IMG/VR virus record: IMGVR_UViG_3300046542_000291
Location: 51,641-115,640 of that record
Direction: 5' to 3' (one strand)
Length of the DNA stretch: 64,000 nucleotides
Origin: a virus
The number at the start of each line of letters is the position of its first letter. Positions within the stretch are counted from its first letter, which is position 1. The notes beneath the pieces were generated by a model, which saw nothing but the letters and a program-made list of their open reading frames with translations, was not told the DNA's origin and ran no database searches. The position numbers and the translations under genes are program-made. Below, piece after piece: positions 2,878 to 57,952 of this stretch.

Positions 2878-3552
2878 ATGTTCGTCGATATCAGTGCCTA
2901 TTTGATCGCCACTCCTCTTCCAGTCTCCGATGAAAATCCGGTAGCGCTGGAACTCCTCGGCTCGGAAGCCTTGGTAAACTGCAAGGACGTGATCTGTCAA
3001 CTGGAAGACGGCTCCATACAACTCTCCGCTCCCACGTTGGGGGCATCTAGCAAAAGTACACACCGCACTCGGTGTGAATGGAAAGAGCCAGCTTACTGGG
3101 CTCTCGCTAGTGCCGCACATCACTGGTCTCGCCAAGAGATGGCTGTTACTCAGGTCAACTCAGCTCAGAAAGTAGTGATTGCACAAACACATGTGAAAGG
3201 CGCCACTACTCCGCCCCTGAAAGTCTTCTGGAATAAAGGGAAGATTACAGCTGGATTCCGTTCGAGTTTCGTTGATCCCACGATCAACAACTTTACCCTA
3301 CTCGAAGACGTGCCTCTCGGCATACTCTTCAAAGTAAGCCTGCATGTAACAGCGGCGGGTTCTGTTTCCGTCAATGTCCTTTGCGAAGGGCGTAAATCGG
3401 TGTGTCCGGTGTTGAAATTGGACAGCTCGTGGAAAGACCAGACCTTCCAGTTCCATGGGGGTGTTTACAACCAGATCGATTACAGCGATACGACACCGCC
3501 AGAAGATGGTTCTATCTGCATAATCACCGAGTTGTCAACAACGCATTACTAA
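2878..3552 (+). CDS. hypothetical protein (224 aa)
   Basis: ORF-track ORF; GAGAGTAAAG RBS region before ATG. Confidence 0.55.
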   Translation: MFVDISAYLIATPLPVSDENPVALELLGSEALVNCKDVICQLEDGSIQLSAPTLGASSKSTHRTRCEWKEPAYWALASAAHHWSRQEMAVTQVNSAQKVVIAQTHVKGATTPPLKVFWNKGKITAGFRSSFVDPTINNFTLLEDVPLGILFKVSLHVTAAGSVSVNVLCEGRKSVCPVLKLDSSWKDQTFQFHGGVYNQIDYSDTTPPEDGSICIITELSTTHY

Positions 3553-4515: not shown

Positions 4516-6372
4516 ATGCAACTCACACCAGAAATTTTGGCTGTCATCGATACAGCCCCAGAAGAGCGTAAAGAAAGTCTCACCGAACTCATCAAAAACA
4601 CCATCGCAAGCAACCTGGATAAGGATGCTTTGGCTATTGCGCAACACCTTGTGGCCTTTGGCCACTTCCACGACATGACCCGTTCGATCGTACACCCCGA
4701 TGAATTGTGGGATGCGGTCTCTGCGGTCGAGGAAGAGTTGCCTGAATACTGGCAGAGCACATCGGACGCCATCCAGGTCTGCCGCGGTGGCAACCAGATC
4801 ATCACCGAGAAGCTCGGTATCTGGCAAGCAGCCATGGATAAATACCAATCCACTAAAGAAGGTACCATCGATCCAAAGGTCATCTCCCCACTACCAGAAG
4901 AAGCTCCTGGAGACGCTCTCCTGGCTGAGTGCGACGTAACCCCTACCGTTGAGGTGGATAAACATCCAGACCTCTTCCAAACGCCTATCAGCGACGTACA
5001 CAGCTTCATGAAGCTTCTGGACGAAACGTTGAACCGGTATTTCGGCATTGACAACCTCCCAGTTGGCATGATCAGCGATGAACTCGCTCGCCTGGTCCAC
5101 AACAAGCTCTACGAACACTTCCTGGATCGCTACTGGGTAGAAGGCCATAACTACGCTTGGCCAAAGCGTGACCACGTTGAGCTCCGTCCTCGGAAGGTCG
5201 TTCGTATCTTCCTCGATGAGCATGATCCAGCGCCAGATCAAACACTGGCGTTCATCAAGAAAGAACTGGCCAAGTTGGATAAGGTCACCATCCTCGATTT
5301 ACTGAGTAATGGCACCGTCATCGAATGTGACGTCGACCAACCAATCAATGATGCAATCGATTCGGTTGAGTGTGAAGCCACTGCGCTGCCACACGACCCA
5401 CATTCCGATGAAGACACAGCGAAGATGTTGGAAAGTCTGGAGGACCCGTCCAAGTTGTACATGATGAAAGTCGATGGCGAACCCACCATCCTTTACATGG
5501 ATGGCGATGAAGCGGAACTGGCCAAAGAAGTATCGGCCGGTTTGCATAAGGACATCGAACTGCTGGCTGCCGAAGGCGCTGATGCATTGATGTTTGAACA
5601 CGGCCTGATCAGTAACATCCCGGATGGCTTCCCGAACGCCGAGAAATGGCGGACACTCATTCGTGAGAACTGCAGCCGCGCTTTCCGGAAGATCCTTCTG
5701 GAAAACGGTGAGCATGAAGAACTGGCTAAGCTGGATGCAGAAGCTGGCGAGAAAGTAGTTGGTCATATCGCTGGTGCCGAGATCCTCGCTCCAGAGAAAC
5801 CAAGCGAACAAATCGCTCAAGCTTCCATCGTCCCGAATGAACCGCAGGTAGATCCACTGACCTCGTTGGTGGAACCAAAGTTCTATCGTCCACTCAGCCT
5901 GTACGACATTGATCAATTCGATATCCCGGAAGGGAAAACCGAGTTGTTCGAATCGACCTGGAACATGATTCGTCAACCCGACATGCAAGTTTGGCTGGCT
6001 GGTCGTTACGATGTTCCTGATCTGCCATGCACTCCAGCTGACCTGGTTACCGTACAACGCTTCCTGACTCCTGTTCAGGAACACCCACAGCAGGAAGTCA
6101 TGTTCCGTCGTGTGCTGGAAAAGATCGGTGAAGAAGAACCGGAAATCAAGGAATGGTTGGAAAAGCGTGACGCTGCCCAAACTTCCCTGGAGTTCGATCT
6201 GACCGTCACTCCCGAAGGCCGTGCCCGTCAAAAGGTGATTGTACCGGCTGGTGTATCTGACCCACAGACACTGCTGCGTGAGATGGGGGACTTCCTCCAC
6301 ACTGACGAAGGTGTGTTCATGAGTCGTGATGCTGTCGAAGCCAAGTTCGGCGTGAAGATCATCGACGTTTAA
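4516..6372 (+). CDS. large acidic hypothetical protein (618 aa)
   Basis: Long ORF with AAGAAAGGA RBS; Asp/Glu-rich; no motif recognised; terminated by the bidirectional hairpin. Confidence 0.7.
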   Translation: MQLTPEILAVIDTAPEERKESLTELIKNTIASNLDKDALAIAQHLVAFGHFHDMTRSIVHPDELWDAVSAVEEELPEYWQSTSDAIQVCRGGNQIITEKLGIWQAAMDKYQSTKEGTIDPKVISPLPEEAPGDALLAECDVTPTVEVDKHPDLFQTPISDVHSFMKLLDETLNRYFGIDNLPVGMISDELARLVHNKLYEHFLDRYWVEGHNYAWPKRDHVELRPRKVVRIFLDEHDPAPDQTLAFIKKELAKLDKVTILDLLSNGTVIECDVDQPINDAIDSVECEATALPHDPHSDEDTAKMLESLEDPSKLYMMKVDGEPTILYMDGDEAELAKEVSAGLHKDIELLAAEGADALMFEHGLISNIPDGFPNAEKWRTLIRENCSRAFRKILLENGEHEELAKLDAEAGEKVVGHIAGAEILAPEKPSEQIAQASIVPNEPQVDPLTSLVEPKFYRPLSLYDIDQFDIPEGKTELFESTWNMIRQPDMQVWLAGRYDVPDLPCTPADLVTVQRFLTPVQEHPQQEVMFRRVLEKIGEEEPEIKEWLEKRDAAQTSLEFDLTVTPEGRARQKVIVPAGVSDPQTLLREMGDFLHTDEGVFMSRDAVEAKFGVKIIDV

Positions 6373-13132: not shown

Positions 13133-13801
13133 TCAGTCGCGATTGAGACAGTTGCCGAACTTTTGTTCTGCTTGGTATTGAATCTTCTTGGTGATGCTGT
13201 CCAACGTACTATCGAAGTTGCACACGAAGTCAATGGTGAAGTTGATCCCTTTGAGGATGTCTTCGCTATTGTCCGTGATGAACTGCGCCAGCTTCTTGTT
13301 GGAATGACCTGTATCAGTTGCTGCGTCTTCCTGCATCCGGGTAAGTAAACGTTGGATTACAGTTGAGTCAGCCAGATCGGCAATCCGGGTAGTGGTCAGG
13401 AAGTAATCGTTGGTGCCCTTATGACGGACAACAAACAAACGACCAGCCCCTTTACTCGAATATTCTTTACGATCTAACAGAAGACTTTCATCGATCAGGT
13501 CCCCTTCCAGCTCTGCAGCCGAGAAACGATGTGGTTGAGTAAGCATCCACAGTTCCAGCTCAGCGCCGCGTTCAATATGTTTAGCCAGCTCCCCGCCAAA
13601 CTGTTTTGGATGACGCCCCATCACCCGACGAATAACGGTGGTCCAATTGTTCGTTTCCGACAACCACACATCGCCAGTGTCCTTGACCACGATAGCGTAG
13701 AAGCCACCGGGGATCTTGGTCTTTGGTGCGGTGGTCTGGCCGGTCCAGTTAGCCATGTAACGCTTCAACACACCACGTGCAGTGTTATAACGGTTGAACA
13801 T
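13133..13801 (-). CDS. putative GIY-YIG-type (homing) endonuclease (222 aa)
   Basis: GFYAIVVKDTGDVWLSETNN...RR...H...E pattern resembles the GIY...YIG...R...H...E core. Basic C-terminal half fits a DNA-binding tail. First gene after a promoter-like motif. Confidence 0.45.
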   Translation of the reverse strand: MFNRYNTARGVLKRYMANWTGQTTAPKTKIPGGFYAIVVKDTGDVWLSETNNWTTVIRRVMGRHPKQFGGELAKHIERGAELELWMLTQPHRFSAAELEGDLIDESLLLDRKEYSSKGAGRLFVVRHKGTNDYFLTTTRIADLADSTVIQRLLTRMQEDAATDTGHSNKKLAQFITDNSEDILKGINFTIDFVCNFDSTLDSITKKIQYQAEQKFGNCLNRD

Positions 13802-13867
13802 GTAATACTCCTAGTTCCTATTGTTCTATTGAATGGTGTAGCTGAGTCTTTCTTTATTTACACGATT

Positions 13868-13876
13868 GTAATATAG
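13868..13876 (-). promoter_or_regulatory. conserved promoter-like motif CTATATTAC (minus sense), 67 nt upstream of the 13801 start
   Basis: One of five near-identical copies, each 25-45 nt downstream of a UUCG hairpin. Confidence 0.5.
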
Positions 13877-13897
13877 CTTTTAAATCACGTCCAATAA

Positions 13898-13917
13898 GGC
13901 CTCCCCGAAGGGAGGCG
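13898..13917 (-). terminator. UUCG-loop GC hairpin (GGCCTCCC-CGAA-GGGAGGC), putative terminator
   Basis: Repeated hairpin family; directly after the stop of 13924..14181. Confidence 0.55.
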
Positions 13918-13923
13918 CTTATG

Positions 13924-14181
13924 TCAGTTCTCCTGGCTAGAATCGATCAGGGGTACACAGTCCAGCTTGTAGTCGTCGTTAAACCCAGGGATCTCGTCTT
14001 CTACGAGCCAGCGCTTATCACTGATCCGCTTAACCGAGGGTTCCTTCAGAGTCGAGATGAAAGCATCACGCACAGCGTAACACTTATCCATCGACGACAC
14101 TACCTGTACGGTACGGGAACCGATTTCTGCATTACCCGACCCACCACTGAACACCATCACGAACAACGCTTCAACTAACAT
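13924..14181 (-). CDS. hypothetical protein (85 aa)
   Basis: ORF-track ORF. Confidence 0.5.
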   Translation of the reverse strand: MLVEALFVMVFSGGSGNAEIGSRTVQVVSSMDKCYAVRDAFISTLKEPSVKRISDKRWLVEDEIPGFNDDYKLDCVPLIDSSQEN

Positions 14182-15029
14182 GCTTTTTCCTTACGCTCAT
14201 TGCGAGCAGCCAGATAGAGTTCAACCGCTTCGGCAAACTCTTTCCATTCCTGGACGTATGCTTCACCGAGGACTTGTGGCAAGACACGCCACAGTTCATC
14301 GTTAGATGGGAGACCTGCTTCGGCGCAGGAAATCTTCCAGCTGTTGCGAAGCTTACGCAGACCGGACCCATAACGGGCTTTGTGCAAGATCACCGACCCG
14401 GACATTTCTGCCCCAGCTACCTTACCTAACTTCAAACCACCACCAGGGCCCAGCGAATGCCGAGAAGCATAGTTGATCAGATCACGGGTTAATGGACCCA
14501 GTTCATCAACGAGCTCTTCAAGGGTACGGGTACTGTCGTAGTGAATACCACCTGGGAAGTGACCCATCCAGAAAGGAAACATCTCTTTCAGATAGACCGC
14601 TTGCGCACGACGATGTTCACGGTGCTCTTCTTCACATTGTCGGGTGACGATTTCCTCGAACTCTTTGGTCATGCCATTAAAGAATTGACCAGTGGCGTTC
14701 ACGCTTTGCCACAGAATCGGCTTATACCGATCCGACAAAGCCACCCGGTCGATTACACGACAGACTTCGATCATGTAAGCGGAATGAGGTTCTTCCCATT
14801 CTTCCAGAGTAGCCTGGTATTCTTCGAAGTTCTTTTTGATGGCCGGTTTGACGAAGTTGATCAACGCCGGGAAGTCATGTGGATCTTGCGACCACTGTGC
14901 ACCCAGCTTCATCATCTCCATGGGAATCAGATTCCCTTCGTTGGTGATGGTGTACGTCTTATGGTCATCCGCTCGGCGAACACACCAAATGTAACCGAGC
15001 ATCACACCGCGTTCTTTTTCAACTGCCAT
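14175..15029 (-). CDS. hypothetical protein (284 aa)
   Basis: ORF-track ORF. Confidence 0.6.
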   Translation of the reverse strand: MAVEKERGVMLGYIWCVRRADDHKTYTITNEGNLIPMEMMKLGAQWSQDPHDFPALINFVKPAIKKNFEEYQATLEEWEEPHSAYMIEVCRVIDRVALSDRYKPILWQSVNATGQFFNGMTKEFEEIVTRQCEEEHREHRRAQAVYLKEMFPFWMGHFPGGIHYDSTRTLEELVDELGPLTRDLINYASRHSLGPGGGLKLGKVAGAEMSGSVILHKARYGSGLRKLRNSWKISCAEAGLPSNDELWRVLPQVLGEAYVQEWKEFAEAVELYLAARNERKEKAC

Positions 15030-44600: not shown

Positions 44601-46001
44601 TTATTCTTCGTCGTCTTTCTTCTTTTCCAAATACTGAGTACTTACAGCTTTAAAGCTGAACACTCGGTCGGTGCACTTGAACACCAGTCCTTCGCGGTAA
44701 GTTTTCTTCGGTTGTTTCGGATCGACATTGAACGCACGCGGACCTTCAGCCATCAGGAGAATATCCTGAATAGTAGTGCCCACCGGAATAACAAACTTCT
44801 CATGCATGACCGGGACGTAAGGAAGGCCGATGGCAGCACATACACCACGAGCTTCTTCCGGCAACAACTCCTGGCTACCATTGCGGTATACGCTGTAGAC
44901 ATGGTATTCAACATCTTCCACGCCTTCGAAGCCAGACTGGATATCTGGACCGATCAGCTCGCCTTGAACAGTGATGTATTCACCTGTCTCTTCCTGGTAC
45001 GCCTTCAGCTTCTCAACCACCTTGTTCTTGGTGACGTAGCGGGTGAAGTTCCGGGAGGTGCTGTCGCCAATACCGGTGTTGGCTTTCCATTCAGGGACGT
45101 GAAGGTTGTTCATACGGAACGCCCATTTGCCATCTTCGTCCTTGAAGAACCACGACTTCGGTTTTAGGAAGTTGCGGTTGCGCGCCAGGAGGGTACCGAT
45201 CCAGTAACGGATCTGATCTGGTTTGGACCATTCCTCGTCACCGATAACCAACTCGTAGTTACGCGAGCAAACGCCAGTACGAACACCACCATCATCCAGG
45301 CAGAATACCGTCATGGAGCTACCGTCGAGTTTCCAGGTAACTTCGAATTCAGTGCCTTCCGCCTTTGCCGCTTCGAACGCGACTGTCTTGTTCTGGATAC
45401 GATCCTGATCAGACTTGAGCAGTTGCTTCGGCCATGGCAGGAGAGCATTACCCACGTTACCGAGGATCTTACGTACCAGACGCATGTACCAGCCAGAACC
45501 AGCTGCAGCCTGTTGCGCCGGCGACATGAGTGGCTTGGCTGCAAACTTCAGGATGCCCAGCTCCAACGTCATGTTGGTTTCAGCTGGAAGGTCTTTGTAT
45601 TTCTCTGGGAGTGGTACAACCAACCCCTGGGCCAGCTCCTTACGAAGACGGAGCGTGCGCAAACGGTGATAAGCCTTACCGTTGATCAGGCGGTTATCGG
45701 AACGGCGTGCCTCGAGGAACCCGAACAGTGGGTTATCGATTGGCAACAGCGAGTCGATCTCGCAGTACACCACACGGTCACCCTTCTTGTATTCGTCCAG
45801 CTTGACCACGCACTGCCAGCCGCCGATGATTGCCAGAGACAAGGCATCAGCATTTGGATGTTTGATCACGTCGTCAAGTACGACGATACGCGCCAGTTTG
45901 CGGTCGGTTTCAACCACCCCGTTCCCCTCACGGATTGGTTTGAGTTCAGCAGCTACATCGGGGGTAGCGGTTGCGACTTCGATCTTTTCTACGACAGACA
46001 T
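44601..46001 (-). CDS. ATP-dependent polynucleotide (RNA/DNA) ligase with an N-terminal OB domain resembling tRNA-binding (Myf/EMAP-like) domains, 466 aa
   Basis: Nucleotidyltransferase motif I WKLDGSS (KxDG) and motif IV EGLVFK. N-terminus (ARIVVLDDVIKHPNADALSLAIIGGWQCVV...KKGDRVVY) follows the HP.AD.L pattern of tRNA-binding OB domains. Confidence 0.75.
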   Translation of the reverse strand: MSVVEKIEVATATPDVAAELKPIREGNGVVETDRKLARIVVLDDVIKHPNADALSLAIIGGWQCVVKLDEYKKGDRVVYCEIDSLLPIDNPLFGFLEARRSDNRLINGKAYHRLRTLRLRKELAQGLVVPLPEKYKDLPAETNMTLELGILKFAAKPLMSPAQQAAAGSGWYMRLVRKILGNVGNALLPWPKQLLKSDQDRIQNKTVAFEAAKAEGTEFEVTWKLDGSSMTVFCLDDGGVRTGVCSRNYELVIGDEEWSKPDQIRYWIGTLLARNRNFLKPKSWFFKDEDGKWAFRMNNLHVPEWKANTGIGDSTSRNFTRYVTKNKVVEKLKAYQEETGEYITVQGELIGPDIQSGFEGVEDVEYHVYSVYRNGSQELLPEEARGVCAAIGLPYVPVMHEKFVIPVGTTIQDILLMAEGPRAFNVDPKQPKKTYREGLVFKCTDRVFSFKAVSTQYLEKKKDDEE

Positions 46002-46017: not shown

Positions 46018-46266
46018 TTATTGCAAAGGTTTGCAGGTTACAGTGATTTTTGCCATACGGCTCGACAGTGCGCCACCATCGACTCTCGATTCAACGTAGT
46101 CTTTGGTTTCTTTGACGAGGTAAGGCTTCATGCCGTATGTCTCTACGACTTGTTCAATTGCGGCTGGACACGTGTTGGCATCTGACAGTTCTGTGACTGT
46201 TGGTGCACCACCAGGTCCTGCGCCTGTATTGAACGCAAATGCGATAACAAGTAACGCTTTCATCAT
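46018..46266 (-). CDS. small secreted protein (82 aa)
   Basis: Signal peptide MMKALLVIAFAFNTGAG; two Cys. Confidence 0.5.
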   Translation of the reverse strand: MMKALLVIAFAFNTGAGPGGAPTVTELSDANTCPAAIEQVVETYGMKPYLVKETKDYVESRVDGGALSSRMAKITVTCKPLQ

Positions 46267-47546
46267 TACCCCTTAACGCAGAGAACCTGCTTCAGCGTGT
46301 GGACGATCTCGACGAGTTCAGCCTGAGCTGCCATCACGTCTTCGATGTTCTTGTACGCCTTCGGGGTCTCATCGAGCACACCTTCATCTTTACGGCATTC
46401 AACACCAGCCGTATCGCGGATGTGATCTTCGATGGTGAAGTTACGGTTAGCCGCTTTACGCGACATCACACGACCAGCACCATGCGAACAGGAGCAGAAC
46501 GACTCACGGTTGCCCTTACCACGAACGATGAACGACTTCGCACCCATCGACCCTGGGATAATACCCAGAGTACCTTCCTCGGCGTTTACGGCACCTTTAC
46601 GGGTAACCAGAACGTTCTCACCGAAGTGACGTTCCTGGGACACGTAGTTGTGGTGGCAATTGATTGCCGCCATGTCGGTGTCGATTGGCAGGTTCAGGGT
46701 TTTGTGGATCGCCCCCAGAACAGCCTTCATCATGAGCGTACGATTCAGTGCTGCGAAACGCTGTGCCCACGATACCGCCTGCAGGTAGTCGTCGTAGTAC
46801 TTGGTACCGTGTGGCAGGTAAGCCAGATCTTGGTCTGGTAGATGGATAAAGAAACGACCCATCTCTTCCTTTGCCTTGTTGATGAAGTACTGACCGATCG
46901 CATTCCCGATACCACGGGAACCAGAGTGCAGCATTACCCACACACGCTGTTCCTCGTCCAAGCACAGCTCAACGAAGTGGTTACCGGTACCGAGAGTACC
47001 CACATGGTTCCACGCCCGTTGTGCAGCCTTGGTGAGCTTCGGGTGTTTCTCAACGATTTGGTTCAGTTGCGTTCGCAACTTCTCCGCTTCAGCAGCGATC
47101 ATGATGTCCTTGTTATCGAACACAGTCACCTTACCGAAAGCACCACGGTCGTTTGGACCACCGTTGTCAGTACGGCCATGTGGTACTACCGCTTCGATAG
47201 CTGCCCGCAGATGGCCGAGGCTATCTGGCAGTTGGTCTGCACCGAACGTCAAGCGACGAGCGGCCATTCCGCACCCGATATCGACCCCCACCGCAGCGGG
47301 AATGATTGCACCTTTAGTAGCAATGACGCTACCGACAGTGGCACCCAACCCGAAGTGTACGTCCGGCATTACTGCAACGTGCGAATGGATGAACGGCAAC
47401 GACGCCAGGTTCTTCAACTGCTTGACTGCGGTCTCTTCGACTGGAACCCCCACGGTCCAGCCTTTAATCGGCTTCGAACCCGGTTCAGGTTCGCCACCAA
47501 TGATTTCGAAAGACTTATCTTGCTGCTGGGATTTCTTTTGTTTCAT
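46266..47546 (-). CDS. rtcB: RtcB-family RNA ligase (3'-phosphate/5'-OH ligase), 426 aa
   Basis: Blocks HFGLGATVGSVIA, DIGCGMAA, GTLGTGNHFVEL and HSGSRGIGN match conserved RtcB metal/GTP-binding motifs. Confidence 0.9.
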   Translation of the reverse strand: MKQKKSQQQDKSFEIIGGEPEPGSKPIKGWTVGVPVEETAVKQLKNLASLPFIHSHVAVMPDVHFGLGATVGSVIATKGAIIPAAVGVDIGCGMAARRLTFGADQLPDSLGHLRAAIEAVVPHGRTDNGGPNDRGAFGKVTVFDNKDIMIAAEAEKLRTQLNQIVEKHPKLTKAAQRAWNHVGTLGTGNHFVELCLDEEQRVWVMLHSGSRGIGNAIGQYFINKAKEEMGRFFIHLPDQDLAYLPHGTKYYDDYLQAVSWAQRFAALNRTLMMKAVLGAIHKTLNLPIDTDMAAINCHHNYVSQERHFGENVLVTRKGAVNAEEGTLGIIPGSMGAKSFIVRGKGNRESFCSCSHGAGRVMSRKAANRNFTIEDHIRDTAGVECRKDEGVLDETPKAYKNIEDVMAAQAELVEIVHTLKQVLCVKG

Positions 47547-48225: not shown

Positions 48226-49542
48226 TTATGCCGCTTTGAGAAGGGGCAATGTGGGGATGGATGCAATAAAGGCATCCGGGTCACGGCGATGTTCAAGGAA
48301 CAACGCTTGCAGGTCACAGCCCGCTATGTCCTCGAAACACCCACTGAATTCGTAGGTATGCTCCGGGAACACAACATGGATGTACTCGCGTACTTCTACA
48401 TCGGTCAAGTAACCGATTTCCATCAGGTGGTCCACTCGACCTTTACGAACTACCGCATCATCGATCTTGTCGATGTGGTTGGTAGTCATGAAGATCACCG
48501 TGCCGTTCAGCGAAACCACCCCGTCCAACACGTTGAGCACTTTGCTCAGGGTCAACCGGGAGAACTCTTCGTTCAGGGCTTCGAAGATGTTTGCTTCCGC
48601 AACTTTCTTCTTGGCTGGCGCCGCCGGTAAAGCACCGAGTGTTTCCACCGGTTCAACCTTTGGCTTCTTCGGTGTACGCGCCTTGAAGGCAGCCGAACTG
48701 TCGAAGTCTTCGATCAACACCACCGAGTTCGGGGGCAGGTGACTGAGGGCTTTCTCGAATGACGTATCGTCCATCGAGTTGATGTTGATGGTGCAGATGT
48801 TCTTGCCGAAGTGGGCAGCCAGTGCCTTGATGATACTGGTCTTGCCTGTACCTGGCTTACCGTGGATAACAAACGTCGACTTGTAAGCCATGCCACGTTC
48901 GTTGTACCACTCTTCACTTTCGTAGAACTGTTCCAGCTCGAAGATCAACTTATCCTTCGTAGCTTTGTTCATCGCTACCGTCTTGAGAGGACGCTTCTTG
49001 ATCTCACACAGGTACTGCCAGCCTTGATCACCGGTGTACGTATAGATGCGGGACTTCAGTGAGTTCTCTTTCGGCATGAACGAACTGACCAGGTCCTTCA
49101 ACACTTGTTGATTACGACCCCAGGTGAAAATCGTGACGCGTTCTTTCTCGTTGGTTGACCCTTGACTGTTCAATGCTTCTTTCTTGAACCAGTACAGGCG
49201 TCTCTTATAAACGAAGAAGTGTGTGCCGAAACCAGGGCCTATAATTGTCCGGCTGTTGGGTGACTCCAAGCTGATGTTCCGCGAGTAGCGTGACCAGGGT
49301 TGTTCACAGAACCACTGCATGAAGGACGTGAAGTGAACACGGTCTTCTGACCAAGCGGTGGCGTTGTTGAACGTCAGGCTGGTCATGCATTGTTTCAGTG
49401 TGGCCGAGTACACCGTTTTGGGCACCTGCCGCAGTATCGCGTACAGGAACCCCATTAGGCCAGCAAGGACGATGCCTGCTGCCCAGGGGGAAACCTTGTT
49501 GAATGTCAGGTATTGCTGCTGAAGCCAATCAATAAATTCCAT
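48226..49542 (-). CDS. membrane-anchored AAA+ ATPase, BCS1-like (438 aa)
   Basis: N-terminal TM helix plus a BCS1-N-like region. Walker A IHGKPGTGKTSII, Walker B VVLIEDFD, arginine-finger region. Confidence 0.75.
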   Translation of the reverse strand: MEFIDWLQQQYLTFNKVSPWAAGIVLAGLMGFLYAILRQVPKTVYSATLKQCMTSLTFNNATAWSEDRVHFTSFMQWFCEQPWSRYSRNISLESPNSRTIIGPGFGTHFFVYKRRLYWFKKEALNSQGSTNEKERVTIFTWGRNQQVLKDLVSSFMPKENSLKSRIYTYTGDQGWQYLCEIKKRPLKTVAMNKATKDKLIFELEQFYESEEWYNERGMAYKSTFVIHGKPGTGKTSIIKALAAHFGKNICTININSMDDTSFEKALSHLPPNSVVLIEDFDSSAAFKARTPKKPKVEPVETLGALPAAPAKKKVAEANIFEALNEEFSRLTLSKVLNVLDGVVSLNGTVIFMTTNHIDKIDDAVVRKGRVDHLMEIGYLTDVEVREYIHVVFPEHTYEFSGCFEDIAGCDLQALFLEHRRDPDAFIASIPTLPLLKAA

Positions 49543-49610
49543 GTCACATAGCTCTCTGTGTTAAACCGGCATAGATCGCCCCTTCCCTGGAGCGGTTCTA
49601 TGTTGGGGTG

Positions 49611-51392
49611 TTATGCAGCTTCGCGCAGGGTTGCACGAACTTCTTCGAAGGTCACTTCGTTCGGGAACGTGCCGTCTTTGTAGATCGGACGCAGTTCACC
49701 CGAGTGAGTGTCGAGGTCAGCGATTTCGAACTTCTGCTCTTGGAGCAGCTCAAAGTCACCGGCTTCGTTCTTCACAACCTTCAGGAAGCCCTTGGCCGAC
49801 TTCTTGTTGGTTTCGCCTTCGGTCTTCGGCGCCTTGAACAGCTCAACGAACACGTCGTCCACTTGAACGGCGGTAGCCTTGATGGCGTAGCCGAAGGTGT
49901 CACGAGTGTTGTGCTGATAGGTGTACGAACCGATACCCAGAACCCAGTTGCACGAAGCGAAGCCTTTCTTCATCAGGCGACGCATGATTTCCTGGGTACG
50001 TTCCACAGTGATCGAATCACCGTAGATCAGGCCAACACGTTCGTGCAGCACTTTGAAGCCCTTGTCGGTCATGGTGCCACCGAAAGTGTTCCACAGGCAT
50101 TCCACCGCACCGATCTGTTCGGCGTTCAGTTCTACCGGAGCCCACAGGTAGCCCAGAGCCGTGTAGTACTTCTCGGCGTCTTCAGCACTGATCGGATTTT
50201 CGTAGCGGGTTGCTTTGTACGTCATGCCGTTCAACAGAACGTACTCGACGTCTTTCGCTTTGCCGTTGTTGACCAGTTCGCTGAATTCCAGCGAGTTGTG
50301 AACTTCCACACCGCAGATGACTTCAACAGGATCACCGGAATCCGGACGGAACACCACTTTGGCCAGGCCGTTGGCGTCTGGTTGACGAGCCAGGATTTCT
50401 TCCTTCAGGGAAGGGGCAACAATGGTCAGGACACCCCAGAAGTCGAAGCTGTCGCAGACCAGGCTGATGATGCCAGTAGGACACTTGACGGTAATGGCAT
50501 CCAGGATGAACTGACGCTCGGCCAGCAGTTGCGCTTTGCCGTATGCATCGGGATCGAGGTCACCACCAGTCAGGCCTTTTTCCAGCAGCCACTTGGTCAT
50601 GTTGTACAGGATGTTCGAAGTAGCAACGGCGTGTTCGGTAGCACGCACCGATACAGCCAGGAACTCGACGTCGCTGTTGGCGAAGTACATGTCTTCGGCG
50701 TAGTCGATGGCCGGCAGGGTATCGGTACCCACGAAGCTGGTCAGGTGACCGGCGCCAGTACGAGCAGCATCTTCAGGACCGGACAGGCCACGGAAGGCGA
50801 AGTCATGCCCTTGCAACGCAACGAAGTCACGAGGCGAACCAGTCAGGTCAGCGAAGTGTTCCAGGATGCGACGGTATTCGTAAGCGATGGTGGCGTTGCA
50901 GACCATTTTCCAGATCAGCGACGACATCAGGGTTTCCAGGTAGTTCACTACCCAGAAGAATTCCGGTACGGTGTTGTAGATCACGTAGCCCGGAACGTTC
51001 ATGTTCAGGCGAGAGCCTTCCGGTACCGACAGGATGGTAACCGGTAAGTAACCCAGGTCATGCAGTGCTGCCATGGCTTCGATGTCAACCATACCTTCAC
51101 CGAGGTAGTTCTTCATGCGGCGAGCGTAGCGACGGATCACTTGCTCTTTCGGCTTGCTGAAGAACGAATCGTGCCACAGGCCGTGAACTTCACGCATCAC
51201 GCCTTGGATACCGAACCAGACGACTTTGCTATCCCAGAGGTAGGACTGGGACTTGCTGCCCTTGAACAGACGGTCTGCACGTGGAGTGCCGTTACCGTAG
51301 GCGAAGTTGGTGCCGTTCGGGTACAGAGGGCCGTGACCCATTTTGTAACCGTCTGCTGCAGTCGGGCCAAACAGTTTGAAAGAAGTGCTCAT
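49611..51392 (-). CDS. nadV: nicotinamide phosphoribosyltransferase-family enzyme (NadV/Nampt-like; could be a Namat-type variant), 593 aa
   Basis: Conserved Nampt blocks including VFRPDSGDP and the GS...DSFD region. ORF-track 49611..51443 trimmed to ATG with AAGGAAA RBS. Confidence 0.85.
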   Translation of the reverse strand: MSTSFKLFGPTAADGYKMGHGPLYPNGTNFAYGNGTPRADRLFKGSKSQSYLWDSKVVWFGIQGVMREVHGLWHDSFFSKPKEQVIRRYARRMKNYLGEGMVDIEAMAALHDLGYLPVTILSVPEGSRLNMNVPGYVIYNTVPEFFWVVNYLETLMSSLIWKMVCNATIAYEYRRILEHFADLTGSPRDFVALQGHDFAFRGLSGPEDAARTGAGHLTSFVGTDTLPAIDYAEDMYFANSDVEFLAVSVRATEHAVATSNILYNMTKWLLEKGLTGGDLDPDAYGKAQLLAERQFILDAITVKCPTGIISLVCDSFDFWGVLTIVAPSLKEEILARQPDANGLAKVVFRPDSGDPVEVICGVEVHNSLEFSELVNNGKAKDVEYVLLNGMTYKATRYENPISAEDAEKYYTALGYLWAPVELNAEQIGAVECLWNTFGGTMTDKGFKVLHERVGLIYGDSITVERTQEIMRRLMKKGFASCNWVLGIGSYTYQHNTRDTFGYAIKATAVQVDDVFVELFKAPKTEGETNKKSAKGFLKVVKNEAGDFELLQEQKFEIADLDTHSGELRPIYKDGTFPNEVTFEEVRATLREAA

Positions 51393-51405
51393 TACTTTGT
51401 TTTCC

Positions 51406-52281
51406 TTACGCATTGATCCAGGTGAGTTTGTTATCGACAACACCGTCTGGGCGAGTACTGCCCTGTGCTGTCGGATGGAACGAGTTGGTGGTGTAGACGT
51501 GGTCGTACTTTTCAGTAACCAGGTCGAAACCGTACGAGAAGATCCCGTGCGTTACCAACAGTTCCAATCGTGCTGGATTATGCTTGCGGATTTCTTCAGC
51601 CAGTTGGATGAAGGTCCGTCCACCATCACAGATGTCGTCACAGACCAGCAGTCGTTTGCCAGTTACATCGGCATCGAACTTGGTCTTGGTGATTTCCATC
51701 GTTTCCAGGTCACGCTCTTTAGTAGCCGTGATGTAACCAGCGCAGCCCAGGTGAGCAGCCAACGCTTTCACTTTCTTGACAGCCCCTGCATCAGGAGCCA
51801 CCAGCCAGGTATCGTGCAGTTCGTTTGCCGTAGCATCCAACATGTGCACGATGTCAGCCTGGGTCTTGACGATCACGCGGTTGATCAACGCCGGCGTAGT
51901 GTCGCTGTGCGGGTCCAAAATGGTCACACTGACGAACTCACAGAGGTTGATCAACTTCGCTGCTACCGCAATACCCAACGACTCCCCGGGGTTACACACG
52001 CGGTCCTGCCGGGCGTAAGGGACATAAGGGATATATGCGCTTACCGGTACGTCGGGACGAATGCGACGGATCGCATCGGTAACGTGCAGTAAAGCGAGGA
52101 AGTCAGTTGGGGTACGGAGGTTGGCCATGACTTGAATGTCCATGCAACCGCGGATTTTGTTGTGGAACTCTTTCGGAATAAGTGGGTTAACTTCCCCACC
52201 TTTGAACGTGCTCACGTCAACGATAGTCTGCGCCACTCCCCAGTGGTCGCCATTGCCGCGTCGGATACTTAAACGAATCAT
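51406..52281 (-). CDS. prs: ribose-phosphate pyrophosphokinase-family enzyme (PRPP synthetase, or ADPR-pyrophosphokinase-type homologue), 291 aa
   Basis: YARQDR motif and PRPP-binding loop LLVCDDICDGGRTF; immediately upstream of the nadV-like gene. Confidence 0.85.
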   Translation of the reverse strand: MIRLSIRRGNGDHWGVAQTIVDVSTFKGGEVNPLIPKEFHNKIRGCMDIQVMANLRTPTDFLALLHVTDAIRRIRPDVPVSAYIPYVPYARQDRVCNPGESLGIAVAAKLINLCEFVSVTILDPHSDTTPALINRVIVKTQADIVHMLDATANELHDTWLVAPDAGAVKKVKALAAHLGCAGYITATKERDLETMEITKTKFDADVTGKRLLVCDDICDGGRTFIQLAEEIRKHNPARLELLVTHGIFSYGFDLVTEKYDHVYTTNSFHPTAQGSTRPDGVVDNKLTWINA

Positions 52282-52332
52282 TACGGTAGCCTTTTGCTAT
52301 GGTCTTGTATTATTCGGGACGCAGGTATTCCT

Positions 52333-52563
52333 TTACGCTGCGACCTGTAACAATGCTGGGTTCCATGGAATACGGCCTTCGAACATCTGTTCACGTTCAG
52401 AGAGTTCGGCCACAGGTTTACGGCCTTCCAGCTTACGCCAGGCCTTATCAAGGTCAGCCATGTGCTTGTCCAGTTCTTTGGTTTTCTTGAGTGTTGCCAA
52501 CTCATAACCACCCGAACCAGGCATCATCATGGTGCCGTCTTTATAGCGGATTGGCTTAGCCAT
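52333..52563 (-). CDS. hypothetical protein (76 aa)
   Basis: ORF-track ORF. Confidence 0.45.
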   Translation of the reverse strand: MAKPIRYKDGTMMMPGSGGYELATLKKTKELDKHMADLDKAWRKLEGRKPVAELSEREQMFEGRIPWNPALLQVAA

Positions 52564-52916: not shown

Positions 52917-52948
52917 TACATTTTCCTCTTGGTTTTAGACACAAAGTA

Positions 52949-52957
52949 GTAATATAG
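52949..52957 (-). promoter_or_regulatory. conserved promoter-like motif CTATATTAC
   Basis: Flank shared with the copy at 34892. Confidence 0.5.
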
Positions 52958-52995
52958 ATTTCAAATAAAATGGAGTAAAAAAGAAACGGAATAAA

Positions 52996-53015
52996 GCCTC
53001 TCCCGAAGGAGAGGC
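52996..53015 (-). terminator. UUCG-loop hairpin GCCTCTCC-CGAA-GGAGAGGC
   Basis: Hairpin family; after the stop of 53046..53387. Confidence 0.55.
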
Positions 53016-54360: not shown

Positions 54361-55704
54361 TTAGATCCCGTTGGCACCACACGACTTCAGTACGGACTGA
54401 AGGGTGGCATTGGTGGTTGACCCGCGTTCAAAGATTGCAATGCGGAAGTGTTTGCTCAGCTCGGTGAGTACATCATCCAGCTTGGTAGCCGGATAGAGAT
54501 TGTTGCCACCGTCTGGGAGTTGCTGCATGAACACGGCGTCCTCTTTGATCCCCACGCCGCCGACCAGATAATTACAGATCTGTTGCACGAGGGCCGTTTT
54601 ACCGGAGTGAGGAGCCGCGACGATTGCGATGTTGGTGACGCCATGTGCGAGGTCGCGGACGGGGGCTGGATAGACGCGCATGGCTTCGTCCAAAGGGAGT
54701 GGGCGTGCCGGATCTACCGAGAATCGCTGAACGATACGGTGCTCACTCACAATGTACTCTTTGGTGGGAACATAGTTCTTCACCGATTCCATCAGAGCAT
54801 CACGACCCATCAAGCCAATGTCAGCTTGCAGATCCTGGGCCACTACTTCAAAACCAGCGTCGCTCAGCATGTGTGCCAGCTTCGCCGACAAAGCCGTTTT
54901 ACCCGAACCCGTTTCACCGGTGATGATGATAGCCACTTGTTGCTTTTCTTTTGGCTTCTCTTCAACCACACGTCGCGCCACTGGAGCAGCCAACGCACGG
55001 ATTTGCATCCGACTGACCTGAACAAGGCCAGCCGACATGACGAACGGATCGCTACCACTGTAGAGCAGGATCAAATCACCCGCTTCCATCTTGCGCCCAC
55101 GGGGCTCACCACCTGGATGACTCGCCGGTGGATGCCCACCATTGAAGTACCACACACCTTCCCATTGTGTCAACGTTTTCGAATCGACCCAGTTGGTAAA
55201 TGTAGCCACAGCGTTGGTAGTAACACCAATACCCACATGGCCTTCTTCGTCGTTGAAGTAGACACCTTCATAGGAATGCTCCAGTGCGTCAGTGATTTTG
55301 ATAGCCGTGTGATTAGCACGCTTGTCTTCTGGCGAAGTGATCGAGAACTTGGCGTTAGCCCTTGAACGACTGTAGTGTTCTGGATCACCGTCGGGCTCAC
55401 TGAGGATCAACACATCCCCAACATAAACCTGGATGTTTCGGGTGGACCCCTGACTGTTGATGAGGCGGGCGTATACGCTGAACTCACGCCCGCCATGGAG
55501 GGCAAAGAACTCCAGACGATAGACTTTCTGCAACACAGCAAACAGCGCTTCAGCCGCAGCGCTGGTGTATGCCAGTTCCACCACCGCTTTACCCTCAAAC
55601 ACCGAGACGGCTTTGATGAGTGCCCCTTCCATCGTTACAGCTTTGGCGTCAGATGGACGATGCTGTTCGATGCGGATACACGGAAACTTAATTGGGTTTT
55701 GCAT
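54361..55704 (-). CDS. P-loop NTPase-domain protein with two Walker-A motifs (447 aa)
   Basis: GETGSGKTAL and APHSGKTAL in the C-terminal half; beta-rich N-terminal half; no specific family recognised. Confidence 0.6.
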   Translation of the reverse strand: MQNPIKFPCIRIEQHRPSDAKAVTMEGALIKAVSVFEGKAVVELAYTSAAAEALFAVLQKVYRLEFFALHGGREFSVYARLINSQGSTRNIQVYVGDVLILSEPDGDPEHYSRSRANAKFSITSPEDKRANHTAIKITDALEHSYEGVYFNDEEGHVGIGVTTNAVATFTNWVDSKTLTQWEGVWYFNGGHPPASHPGGEPRGRKMEAGDLILLYSGSDPFVMSAGLVQVSRMQIRALAAPVARRVVEEKPKEKQQVAIIITGETGSGKTALSAKLAHMLSDAGFEVVAQDLQADIGLMGRDALMESVKNYVPTKEYIVSEHRIVQRFSVDPARPLPLDEAMRVYPAPVRDLAHGVTNIAIVAAPHSGKTALVQQICNYLVGGVGIKEDAVFMQQLPDGGNNLYPATKLDDVLTELSKHFRIAIFERGSTTNATLQSVLKSCGANGI

Positions 55705-55730: not shown

Positions 55731-56534
55731 TTACTCGGCAGCTTTCAATTCACTACCAGGTTCGATTATGAGCCATCCGAACGTGTCCGTGCGGAGATCT
55801 TCTGTGTCGCGTCTTGCGCCATTGAATGGATTGTAGAACCAGGCAACCGTAGGGAATGTGCACCGGAAGATATCTACGGTCCAGCCACTGTCCATCTTCG
55901 ATCCAGTGTGTGGATGAAAGGCAAGCTTAGCCCCATGGATATCGCGCTTCTCCGGATAGATCTTACCGCCGTTGGCAACGATTTCCTCACGCTTGCATTT
56001 CTTCATGAGGTCGTTGAAAGGCATGCCCGAGTCGGCGGCGCAGATACGTACGTCGACAACAATACCGCGTTCCACCAGGCGTTGAATTTGATCAACCACA
56101 CGCACTTCGGTGTAGTCGATATTCAAATCATCGTCAAGTGAAGTAATGATGATGCGTGCTGGATCAACGTCGAGTTTCATCAACTCCAGCTTAACGTACT
56201 CCATAAGAGTACTCTTGCCAGTATTTGGTAATCCGATCGAGAAGAGACTCATCTGACTGCGAACTGACGGCTGCAACACCACCGATGGACGGATACGGTG
56301 ATCCGGTTTGTCAACGTCAGCCTGGAACAGCCCCATCGACAAACCATGTTCGCTGAACCGGAAGTTCATCCCGCGCAAACGACCCATGTCAGCGATGTTC
56401 TCATCCCCGATCGCAGTTACGCCGAAATTGACGGTCAAACCTGCTTCACGCAGCTTCTTGGTGATCCAGGCAGCGAAGTGACCTTTACCATGGCCAACAT
56501 GTGCGCTAATGATCAACGTTACTTTATTTTCCAT
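55731..56534 (-). CDS. P-loop protein with tandem nucleotide-binding motifs, possible nucleoside/nucleotide kinase (267 aa)
   Basis: ISAHVGHGKGH and GLPNTGKSTL (Walker A) about 100 aa apart. A kinase role in the nucleotide/NAD context is inference only. Confidence 0.6.
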   Translation of the reverse strand: MENKVTLIISAHVGHGKGHFAAWITKKLREAGLTVNFGVTAIGDENIADMGRLRGMNFRFSEHGLSMGLFQADVDKPDHRIRPSVVLQPSVRSQMSLFSIGLPNTGKSTLMEYVKLELMKLDVDPARIIITSLDDDLNIDYTEVRVVDQIQRLVERGIVVDVRICAADSGMPFNDLMKKCKREEIVANGGKIYPEKRDIHGAKLAFHPHTGSKMDSGWTVDIFRCTFPTVAWFYNPFNGARRDTEDLRTDTFGWLIIEPGSELKAAE

Positions 56535-56578: not shown

Positions 56579-57952
56579 TTAAACTGCCACTGGAGCAGGG
56601 ATATGGGGATGGCTATCGTAACCGACCAATTTAAAGTCGTTGATATCCATGTCCAGAACATCACGCTTATTCGGATTTATCCAAATAGTGCACGGCTGTT
56701 TTGGTGTACGGGTTTGTTGCAGAGCCACCTGGTCCATGTGGTCCAGATAGATGTGGGCATCACCAACTTGATGAATCAGTTCTTCAGCCCAGTAGTTGCA
56801 CTCATGAGCCAACAGGTGAGTGAGAATCGAGTACTGGGTGAGATTGAAGGGCGCGCCCAAAAAGATGTCATTGGAACGCATCCAGAACAAACACTTCAAT
56901 GCACGACGTGGAACCTTCATGCTGTCGAGGTCGAGGTGTTGTTCCTCTTCGGTGCGGTCAGGAAAGCGGAGCATCTTGCTGAGGTTCATGTACATACCGT
57001 ACAGAGGCTCCTCAGGATGGTCTGCTGCCTGTTTGTAGATCTCGGCCTGGTGACGATCATGGATCTTGTCGTAGATCGCCCAGCGCTCTTCCAGGGACAG
57101 CACACGGGTCCAGAACTGAACCATGGCATGGCATGGCGGCAGGGCTTGTTGATCCACGTAAGCCGGATTCCAGAAACACAGAATGTGACGTCGGGAGTCA
57201 GGGCTGTTCTTCAGCGAGTGCTGCAGATCTTTAAACTGGTCGATGGTTCGGGTAATGATGAACTTACCCTTGTTCCGGCAAAGCTTCTTGTAACCCAGCT
57301 TCTGCATCTCCGGCCATTCTTTTGGCGAGATAACGCGGGTGTCTTCCAGGTTACGGATCATCTTGCCGTAAACGTGACCCAGAGGACCTTCAGTCACTTC
57401 CTGGTCGGAAATACCAATGTGGCGGAAGAAGTCCTTCCACAACGGATGTTCCTTGTCATCGTGCATTGCCTGGGCATTGTCCGTCGACGTCTCGATCAAA
57501 TAGTTCGGGATCATCTTGTCGCTACCAGGCACTTCAGTGTAGTTGACGTAAGAATGAAACTTCTCGCCAACATTACCAAAGTGAATACCCGCAGGATAAC
57601 CCTTCAGTTCGATCTCACCCCAACCGAAGTGCTTGCGCTTGTATTGCTTGCGCATTTCAGCCGCAGTACGAGGACGGTACTTGGCCCCTTCTGGCTTGAC
57701 CCAGTCATCCCAGATGCCACAGTTGTTGTCTTTCAGGTACTTGACGTTGGTGTCGCCGGAGAGCACCCACTTGAGTTCGACCTTGTTGTCGTTCTCAGGT
57801 ACGAACTTTGTCGTTGGTCTGGCTACGGTCCAGTCGGAGATGTCGTAGCGATGCATGGCGCCGAAGCTGGAGATCGTTCCTGTATTGGTCCGGTCCCCCT
57901 TGGCCACGCCGTGCTTCAAAGTGTTTTCCTGGTACTGAAGGTATTGATGCAT
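56579..57952 (-). CDS. thyA: thymidylate synthase-family enzyme with two large insertions (ThyA or dUMP/dCMP hydroxymethylase-type), 457 aa
   Basis: GDRTNTGT N-terminal motif, catalytic LPPCH, DIFLGAPFN...YSILTHLLAHEC block, and C-terminal HPHIPAPVAV. About 90-aa and 85-aa insertions relative to 264-aa E. coli ThyA. Confidence 0.85.
   Translation of the reverse strand: MHQYLQYQENTLKHGVAKGDRTNTGTISSFGAMHRYDISDWTVARPTTKFVPENDNKVELKWVLSGDTNVKYLKDNNCGIWDDWVKPEGAKYRPRTAAEMRKQYKRKHFGWGEIELKGYPAGIHFGNVGEKFHSYVNYTEVPGSDKMIPNYLIETSTDNAQAMHDDKEHPLWKDFFRHIGISDQEVTEGPLGHVYGKMIRNLEDTRVISPKEWPEMQKLGYKKLCRNKGKFIITRTIDQFKDLQHSLKNSPDSRRHILCFWNPAYVDQQALPPCHAMVQFWTRVLSLEERWAIYDKIHDRHQAEIYKQAADHPEEPLYGMYMNLSKMLRFPDRTEEEQHLDLDSMKVPRRALKCLFWMRSNDIFLGAPFNLTQYSILTHLLAHECNYWAEELIHQVGDAHIYLDHMDQVALQQTRTPKQPCTIWINPNKRDVLDMDINDFKLVGYDSHPHIPAPVAV

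Follow-up and report, generated by a model that had tools for sequence, protein, structure and literature searches.

A probable NARP1-type NAD+ reconstitution gene pair in an uncultivated Phabio-like jumbo phage

We analyzed a 64,000-nucleotide stretch of viral DNA (IMG/VR record IMGVR_UViG_3300046542_000291, positions 51,641 to 115,640 of that record), here called the window, in which two adjacent genes appear to encode a module that rebuilds NAD+. Positions given below count from the first nucleotide of the window, and features lie on its minus strand unless a plus sign is given. The first gene of the pair, adps (52281..51406), encodes a 291-amino-acid (aa) protein resembling phosphoribosyl pyrophosphate (PRPP) synthetase (PRPS; Prs in Escherichia coli) and is predicted to specify an ADP-ribose pyrophosphokinase, i.e., a synthetase of ADP-ribose pyrophosphate (ADPR-PP). 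The second gene, namat (51392..49611), encodes a 593-aa protein resembling nicotinamide phosphoribosyltransferase (Nampt) and is predicted to specify a nicotinamide ADP-ribose transferase. An initial annotation had described adjacent, co-oriented genes of the Nampt and PRPP synthetase families and had read them as an NAD+ reconstitution pair of the phage counterdefense type. Both open reading frames (ORFs) were found at those coordinates on the minus strand, transcribed in the order PRPS-like gene to Nampt-like gene, and the same 291-aa and 593-aa proteins had been called independently in public gene predictions for a Logan contig. The core of that reading holds: judged from sequence, the pair is very probably a module of the NAD+ reconstitution pathway NARP1, composed of Adps and Namat, of the long-Namat type represented by phage Bas63.

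We take adps and namat to be read as a single unit, with 13 nucleotides (nt) between them (spacer, 51393..51405; junction, TAA-GGAAAACAAAGTA-ATG), with an AAGGA Shine-Dalgarno-like element overlapping the adps stop codon. In a mechanical listing of ORFs, the Nampt-like frame reaches a GTG codon at 51443, and a start there would overlap adps; we place the namat start at the ATG at 51392 because the N terminus of the homolog in Pseudomonas phage Phabio (MSTNFQLF) aligns with MSTSFKLF of the window protein. Family matches of both proteins are far beyond chance. The Nampt-like protein matched NCBIfam NF006629 (E = 5.5e-133), PHROG 448 (E = 1e-176), and PF04095, and the PRPS-like protein matched TIGR01251 (E = 2.4e-34), PHROG 619 (E = 1e-81), and PF00156/PF13793.

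In NARP1, Adps, a PRPS homolog, pyrophosphorylates ADP-ribose to ADPR-PP, and Namat, a Nampt homolog, joins ADPR-PP and nicotinamide to form NAD+; the pair is carried by 4.3% of phages, and 97% of genes in the Adps clade adjoin a Namat gene (bioRxiv 10.1101/2024.02.11.579819). NARP2, typified by Vibrio phage KVP40, has the same aim of restoring NAD+ under NAD-depleting defense and shares the Nampt fold of one enzyme, but it uses PRPP by way of nicotinamide mononucleotide (NMN) and consists of Nampt and an NMN adenylyltransferase (Nmnat) without Adps; no phage was found to carry both pathways (bioRxiv 10.1101/2024.02.11.579819). NARP3 comprises a PnuC-like transporter and a NadR-like enzyme. 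The two variants that the initial annotation had set against each other were a Namat-type enzyme paired with an Adps-type enzyme, which is a real pathway, and Nampt paired with a genuine PRPP synthetase, which is not a described one. The same annotation had held that sequence could not decide between variants; published signatures (PMC12774641, PMC13586617, and the tables of bioRxiv 10.1101/2024.02.11.579819) permit the call, and they point to NARP1. What carries that call is the homology and clade placement of the two proteins, their diagnostic residues and fold, and the linkage of their genes.

A first alternative is canonical salvage, in which a genuine PRPP synthetase and a genuine Nampt would make PRPP and then NMN, leaving a host or phage NMN adenylyltransferase to complete NAD+, an arrangement close to NARP2. 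The general family models are compatible with it, as both proteins exceeded their cutoffs (TIGR01251, 118.6 bits versus 113; NF006629, 444 versus 405), and the YARQDR motif of the PRPS-like protein is identical to that of cellular PRPS. Models built on Prs tell against it. On TIGR01251 the window protein scored 119 bits, compared with 139, 106, and 98 bits for the verified Adps proteins of phages Bas63, SPbetaL1, and ICP1 and 423 bits for E. coli Prs. On PRK01259 it scored 99 bits, compared with 101, 74, and 80 bits for the same three Adps proteins and 533 bits for Prs. The window protein is thus within the score range of verified Adps on Prs models, and Prs subfamily and equivalog cutoffs were not reached (for PRK01259, 98.7 bits against a cutoff of 297); like verified Adps, it falls three- to fivefold below every Prs equivalog cutoff. 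In direct blastp comparisons, the ICP1 and Bas63 Adps proteins scored 133 and 130 bits (38 to 39% identity), whereas E. coli Prs scored 65 bits (26%).

Phylogenetic placement of both proteins had been proposed in the initial annotation as a check. For the PRPS-like protein, we built a neighbor-joining tree from 4 verified Adps proteins, 12 Adps proteins of Table S1 of the original NARP1 study, 8 metagenomic homologs, and 3 bacterial and 1 archaeal PRPS, with support expressed as unrooted split support. The split between PRPS and Adps received 96%, with the window protein on the Adps side, and the grouping of the window protein with the Phabio protein received 95%.

The residues that distinguish the two enzymes also argue for Adps. 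The structure paper describes a catalytic Lys185, a remodeled ATP-donor loop (the PP loop), and acceptor residues common with PRPS (PMC13586617). By alignment, the catalytic lysine of the window protein is K188 (51718..51720), equivalent to K185 of ICP1 and K162 of SPbetaL1 and invariant in 61 homologs; the K185A variant of ICP1 Adps (PMC13586617) and the K162A variant of SPbetaL1 Adps (strain table of Osterman et al.) are inactive. The YARQDR motif quoted in the initial annotation was recovered at aa 89 to 94 (52000..52017) and holds R91, equivalent to the ADP-ribose contact R87 of ICP1 Adps (PMC13586617). Residue mapping found F26, R91, H125, D164, D215, and D216 all conserved. The other quoted motif, DDICDGGRT, was likewise recovered and forms, with the following Phe, the PP loop DDICDGGRTF (aa 215 to 224, 51610..51639). 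This loop is remodeled relative to the DTxGT loop of PRPS, reading DGGRT; it is identical in the verified Bas63 Adps and was seen in 58 of the 120 closest homologs. The corresponding segments are DDICDGAASF in ICP1 Adps, DDLSSFGGTF in SPbetaL1 Adps, and DDMIDTGGTL in E. coli Prs.

The predicted structure agrees with this assignment. An AlphaFold2 (AF2) model of Adps (pLDDT, 93; pTM, 0.89) has the PRPS fold, with a template modeling (TM) score of about 0.75 and 20 to 23% identity to PRPS. In the model the last helix spans residues 252 to 258 and is followed by short strands only, and the C-terminal alpha11-alpha12 helices of PRPS are absent; 24 residues extend past the last conserved block, compared with about 45 in E. 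coli Prs. Loss of these helices has been called "a defining evolutionary signature" of Adps (PMC13586617). Sequence and fold searches of the PDB with the PRPS-like protein returned PRPS matches only, from PDB copies that include no solved Adps structure. Relative to cellular PRPP synthetases such as E. coli Prs and human PRPS1, then, the window protein shares the two-domain fold and the acceptor residues R91, H125, D164, and the DD pair but differs in overall identity (20 to 26%), in the PP loop, and in the C-terminal helices. The DGGRT loop, the missing regulatory helices, and the position in the Adps clade all count against a genuine PRPP synthetase.

For the second gene product, the closest PDB sequences in a phmmer search were 9W5W and 9W5X (373 bits), confirmed as crystal structures of SPbetaL1 Namat, followed by the Nampt of Xcc (140 bits) and mammalian Nampt (about 131 bits). 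In blastp comparisons the window protein scored 349, 334, and 283 bits against the Namats of the SPbetaL1, Bas63, and ICP1 NARP1 operons, whereas the NARP2-type Nampts used as references (those of the KVP40-like phage K566 and of Matisse/leE) gave 69 to 91 bits per aligned segment, in two segments each, at 26 to 34% identity. The nadV gene of KVP40 itself was absent from the part of that genome inspected, 150 to 199 kb. A neighbor-joining tree with 300 bootstraps separated NARP2 Nampts from everything else in 100% of replicates, a split that, with the 26% identity between the window protein and KVP40-like or Matisse-type Nampts, speaks against canonical salvage. The AF2 model of Namat (pLDDT, 94.2; pTM, 0.92) retrieved 9W5X and 9W5W as the top Foldseek matches (E = 1e-51; TM score of 0.95 on the target), ahead of the NadV of Haemophilus ducreyi (9e-45) and mammalian NAMPT (about 4e-37). 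The catalytic core is intact and invariant in 56 homologs: D14, Y16, H196, F198, R201, D224, R349, and D351 correspond to D13, Y15, the catalytic His, F189, R192, D215, R306, and D308 of SPbetaL1 Namat. Of these, H196 (50805..50807), which lies in the GHDF motif, is the catalytic histidine that Nampt cores conserve (PMC12774641). NF006629 was dropped as a discriminator between Namat and Nampt, as verified Namats and NARP2 Nampts all score between 444 and 594 on it.

The selectivity clamp provides a sharper distinction. In Namat it consists of a loop (SCL), whose R40 stacks on the adenine, and a helix (SCH) with the signature GS-X-Phi-X-Phi-X-Phi-TRD (PMC12774641). The SCL of the window protein, RADRLFKGSKSQSYLWDSK (aa 38 to 56, 51225..51281), is 9 residues longer than that of SPbetaL1 and carries R41 as the equivalent of the adenine-stacking R40; R41 also falls within the Arg, Lys, or Tyr expected at the third SCL residue, a position held by Glu in H. 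ducreyi NadV. Its SCH, GSYTYQHNTRD (aa 488 to 498, 49899..49931), fits the signature, with T, Q, and N at the three Phi positions, as in the consensus. The clamp is in the Namat state at R41, S489, Y490, T491, and Y492, with TRD retained. For adenine stacking, Tyr or Phe is expected at SCH positions 3 and 7, and these are Y490 and H494 here. Two negative controls behaved differently. NARP2 Nampts read G-G-G-L-L-Q-E/Q at the clamp positions (GGGLLQ(E/Q)..RD), and H. ducreyi NadV (PDB 9ke8/9keo) reads GAQTYQRNTRD, with E, A, Q, and R where SPbetaL1 Namat has R40, S391, F392, and Y396, and so lacks all three clamp residues even though it nests with SPbetaL1 Namat. The adenine clamp is therefore present in the window protein and missing in NARP2 Nampts and H. 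ducreyi NadV, which argues against canonical salvage.

Several points weigh against reading the pair as a NARP1 module. The nearest verified enzymes are just 33 to 40% identical to the window proteins. Clamp position 7 is His in the window protein but Tyr or Phe in verified Namats, and the residue equivalent to F92, an adenine contact of ICP1 Adps, is Cys96, although it is Met or Ser in the verified Adps proteins of Bas63 and SPbetaL1. Namat enzymes retain some PRPP activity in vitro (PMC12774641), a capacity to make NMN that canonical salvage could draw on. H. ducreyi NadV is a functional Nampt that has served to produce NMN (PMC6095924), yet it falls within the Namat-like clade, grouping with SPbetaL1 Namat at 89% support and sharing 58% identity with it over the N-terminal 237 residues, so that a real Nampt occurs in the same broad clade as the window protein. 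Finally, the search for other NAD genes covered 64 kb of a genome of about 310 kb.

Most of these points can be set in context. Of the ADP-ribose adenine contacts F18, R87, and F92 (ICP1 numbering), the first two are kept as F26 and R91, and the F92 position does not appear to define the Adps family because verified members have Met or Ser there. His is the commonest residue at clamp position 7 among the 120 closest Namat homologs (44 of 120), the others having Y, C, M, or F. SPbetaL1 Adps formed no product from ribose-5-phosphate, and Namat given PRPP and ADPR-PP together made NAD+ only. The position of H. ducreyi NadV means that clade placement alone, for which the Nampt-like protein splits cleanly from NARP2 Nampts, does not prove a Namat; what settles the call is the clamp, together with the neighboring Adps gene. 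For H. ducreyi NadV, its nesting and its missing clamp residues suggest a Namat-like enzyme that either went back to using PRPP or never ceased to do so. Canonical salvage further expects an NMN adenylyltransferase, and no NMNAT, NadR, or Nudix protein was found among 10 neighboring proteins or 57 other window ORFs of at least 114 aa; Osterman et al. also saw no phage with both pathways. Taken with the Prs scores, the PP loop, and the clamp, we regard canonical salvage as very unlikely. The doubt that remains on classification concerns this subclade and its His and Cys variants.

These variants, together with the length of Namat, bear on a second alternative, namely, that the pair is a diverged NARP1-like system of altered specificity that uses another acceptor or donor, e.g., a modified ADP-ribose, or in which insertions regulate or localize the enzyme. 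H494 and C96 are unlike the residues mutated or described in solved enzymes, and the SCL is longer, as noted above. Namat also carries two insertions, both predicted with high confidence by AF2 and conserved in the clade. Insertion 1 (aa 261 to 298, 50499..50612) lengthens a helical hairpin in the model; Bas63 Namat has an insertion at this site too, and SPbetaL1 Namat lacks it. Insertion 2 (aa 363 to 426, 50115..50306), modeled as a small alpha/beta subdomain, lies between RPDSGDP...ICG and LW..FGG at a site common to Bas63 and other long Namats; large insertions at this second site also occur in other "Adps-associated" Namats of Table S2 of the original study. The initial annotation had called 593 aa unusually long, which is so relative to cellular Nampt or SPbetaL1 Namat (about 490 aa), but Bas63 Namat, from the founding operon of NARP1, has exactly this length (1782 nt), and the median of the 120 closest homologs is 597 aa. 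The insertions are thus a family feature and not peculiar to the window gene.

Against altered specificity, the Bas63 operon, validated in vivo by deleting it from the phage, encodes a Namat whose two insertion sites are those of the window protein; close homologs differ freely at clamp position 7 (H, Y, C, M, or F); single clamp mutations lower activity only 1.3- to 1.7-fold (PMC12774641); the F92 residue is not conserved among verified Adps proteins; and the catalytic and the ribose- and phosphate-binding residues are all intact. We consider this alternative quite unlikely. It is nearly as doubtful, if marginally easier to entertain, that the jumbo-phage Namat/Adps subclade as a whole differs in substrate preference, regulation, or localization, e.g., by taking a modified ADP-ribose or by being tuned to the compartmentalized infection cycle of giant phages.

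Larger insertions and joined proteins were seen among relatives of this family. Three close Namat homologs (P0153, P0169, and P0231) of 891 to 902 aa are interrupted exactly at the catalytic RPD|SGD site (RPD in the window gene, 50340..50348) by an insertion of about 310 residues that looks intein-like; we had considered these proteins as Adps-Namat fusions and rejected that idea, as they are Namats with the insertion. In the profile PHROG 12872 (547 positions), Adps matches positions 17 to 222 and Namat matches positions 267 to 534, so that some phages have Adps and Namat as one protein, whether fused or mis-joined; Table S1 of the original study gives an example from Shigella phage Ag3.

The relatives of the pair place its source among jumbo phages. 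A megablast search of positions 49000 to 53000 against 50,697 deposited phage records gave no matches, and relatives are therefore visible at the protein level only. The closest deposited protein relatives are from the jumbo phages Phabio and Viktualia and the Ralstonia phages RP12, RP31, and FLC, and next in line are the 300-kb PA1C/Psa21 group and the 93-kb PAK_P1 group. Identity to Phabio is 69.5% for the Nampt-like and 55.5% for the PRPS-like protein, and that to RP12/RP31 is 59% for Namat and 50% for Adps. The exact PRPS-like protein is also present on a 310,396-bp metagenomic contig. We therefore take the window to be part of an uncultivated Phabio-like jumbo phage of about 310 kb. An alginate lyase (PF08787, E = 2e-37) at 2878..3552 (+) hints at an alginate-producing host, e.g., Pseudomonas. 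Coding in the window runs on the plus strand over the first ~6 kb and on the minus strand for nearly all of the remainder.

These relatives are also known carriers of the pathway. In the tables of the original study, the Nampt homologs of Phabio and RP12 are listed as "Adps-associated" (Table S2), and their PRPS homologs are listed with "Namat within 10 genes: Yes" (Table S1); thus, the nearest relatives of the window pair are already among the 859 NARP1 phages. Phabio and RP12/RP31 share the SYTYQHNTRD clamp and the PP loop with the window but have shuffled surrounding gene order and no nucleotide-level match to it, and in Phabio three small ORFs lie between adps and namat, whereas the window genes are 13 nt apart. 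Direct adjacency with adps first is kept in a 324,912-bp relative (locus L010/L011).

Among verified systems, one of the closest to the pair is the NARP1 operon of Escherichia phage Bas63 (bas63_0079, Adps; bas63_0080, Namat), which has the same adps-to-namat order, Namat length, insertion sites, and PP loop DDICDGGRTF, a 293-aa Adps (291 aa in the window), the catalytic Lys, and all Namat core residues. Differences include an identity of about 39 to 40% for both proteins, other clamp residues (K42/W in the SCL and a Tyr in position 7, where the window protein has R41 and H494), and the source, an 87-kb Felixounavirus phage rather than a jumbo phage of about 310 kb. The Bacillus phage SPbetaL1 offers the best solved-structure match and has in common with the window the SCH motif frame and, within the SCL, the stacking Arg (R40 in SPbetaL1, R41 in the window), but its Namat is a short form of 491 aa that lacks both insertions, and its Adps belongs to a Firmicute-phage subclade, with DDLSSFGGTF in place of the DDICDGGRTF of the window.

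Some NARP1 operons carry an accessory gene. NARP1-AP (15% of operons) adds the Macro-domain phosphatase Adpp and copes with aRES defense, and NARP1 with RyDEP, a RyR-domain glycosidase, feeds cyclic ADP-ribose (cADPR) signals into the pathway. These systems share the core adps-namat pair with the window but differ from it in their accessory domain, since HMMER scans of the flanking ORFs gave no match to a Macro or RyR domain. The Pfam families for Macro, RyR, Nudix, NMNAT, NadR, and PnuC had no match in nine flanking ORFs scanned at E <= 1 or in 57 further window ORFs of at least 114 aa scanned at E <= 1e-3. CTP_transf_like (Nmnat), NadR, and Nudix were absent both from 10 neighboring proteins scanned singly and from the 57 other ORFs. 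The Macro family (Adpp) had no match at E <= 1 in the nine flanking ORFs or in the BCS1-like ATPase downstream, by scans less sensitive than the HHpred used in the original study, and PF02026 (RyR domain) had none in the flanking ORFs. The sole NadR signal in the window was a Walker-A-only match (E = 0.002) in a 447-aa P-loop protein. The module is thus, by HMMER-type scans within the window, the basic two-gene form, without the known Adpp phosphatase or RyDEP glycosidase.

The 447-aa protein is one of two Walker-A proteins, at 54361..55704 and 55731..56534, that the initial annotation had described as following the pair and as candidates for an NMN adenylyltransferase or kinase step. The genes lie upstream instead, beyond six small ORFs and a terminator-like hairpin, and the proposed role is not supported: NARP1 needs no NMNAT, and we rejected both proteins as NMNAT or kinase candidates because they matched generic P-loop models only (no specific Pfam family), had no homologs in deposited phages (for the 447-aa protein, no tblastn match in 50,697 phage records), and do not lie near NARP1 in Phabio or the 324,912-bp relative. 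NMNATs are HxGH nucleotidyltransferases and not P-loop proteins. The two Walker-A proteins are weak colinear paralogs of each other (22% identity over 168 aa, E = 0.003), each with two Walker-A-like segments.

The hairpin (52996..53015), a strong one, has an 8-bp stem, a TTCG loop, and a T tract (GCCTCTCC-TTCG-GGAGAGGC and then TTTATT) and lies upstream of the unit holding adps and namat; a promoter-like site, a consensus match only, follows at 52951..52979. Together they could mark the start of a unit comprising two small ORFs, adps, namat, and an AAA ATPase gene, with the caveat that counts of sigma-70 and terminator sites across the scan were not above shuffled expectation. The separation of the Walker-A genes from the pair by the hairpin is suggestive only. 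The ATPase gene (BCS1_N plus AAA, 48226..49542) is separated from namat, on the downstream side, by 68 nt. It matches PHROG 7485 (E = 4e-133; annotated as function unknown) and is not beside NARP1 in Phabio or the 324,912-bp relative.

Other nearby genes serve nucleotide and RNA metabolism. Two RNA-repair ligases lie downstream of the pair, RtcB and an RNA ligase with a PHA02142 OB-fold domain (46266..47546 and 44601..46001). A 457-aa thymidylate synthase (ThyA) at 56579..57952 has a large internal insertion, with Pfam matches in two stretches; long thymidylate synthases also occur in Phabio (465 aa) and the 324,912-bp relative (480 aa). In that relative, RtcB lies directly upstream of adps, and an RNA ligase and ThyA lie downstream (ligases at 4605..5849 and 13279..14718 of locus L010). 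This is a recurring neighborhood of repair and counterdefense genes with shuffled gene order in the window and the relative.

The setting of the pair among ThyA, RtcB, and RNA ligase genes could be taken to favor a third alternative, in which the same chemistry serves housekeeping of a large genome by recycling ADP-ribose and nicotinamide released by phage or host NAD-consuming enzymes, and bacterial NARP1 homologs of unknown role do exist (PMC12774641). Genetic results for homologous pairs favor counterdefense instead: deletion of NARP1 made phage FADO sensitive to DSR2, and phage SBSphiJ given the SPbetaL1 NARP1 by knock-in overcame type I Thoeris (bioRxiv 10.1101/2024.02.11.579819). The pathway is moreover inert unless NAD+ is cleaved, and no ADP-ribosyltransferase or NADase gene was detected within the window. 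A housekeeping purpose therefore seems extremely unlikely.

Under the NARP1 reading, the pair would act as follows. A host defense with an NADase of the SIR2, TIR, or SEFIR type would split NAD+ into ADP-ribose and nicotinamide. Adps would hold ADP-ribose in the PRPS-derived interdomain groove (F26, R91, H125, D164, and D215/D216) and ATP at the remodeled PP loop and, with K188, would move the beta,gamma-pyrophosphate to the terminal (free) ribose to yield ADPR-PP. Namat, as a head-to-tail dimer, would bind nicotinamide between F198 and Y16' while Y490 and H494, with R41' from the partner subunit, as the clamp at the pocket entrance, would grip the adenine of ADPR-PP and so favor it over PRPP. 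Displacement of pyrophosphate by nicotinamide would then give NAD+ directly, without an NMN intermediate or an NMN adenylyltransferase. This chemistry was shown for homologs, and for the window pair we infer it, with the enzymatic activities and the counterdefense phenotype, by analogy. With neither a Macro nor a RyR domain detected in the flanking ORFs, the module is predicted to make no use of cADPR signals.

The gene pair is an ordinary copy of NARP1 and leaves the picture of the pathway unchanged; with it, the roughly 4% of phages with NARP1 gain a further jumbo member, an uncultivated one. It also illustrates that calls of Namat versus Nampt and of Adps versus Prs are feasible from sequence, though standard annotation still errs: the standard labels for the two proteins would be "nicotinamide phosphoribosyltransferase" and "ribose-phosphate pyrophosphokinase." Features that help in making the calls are the residues of the clamp, the PP loop, the absent C-terminal helices, sub-cutoff Prs scores, and gene adjacency. 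As for the phage itself, the module is predicted to fail against aRES-type defense, whose cleavage leaves ADPR-1''P, because no Adpp phosphatase was detected, so the phage should be sensitive to such systems, and the phage is predicted to resist NAD depletion of the SIR2, TIR, SEFIR, and DSR types.

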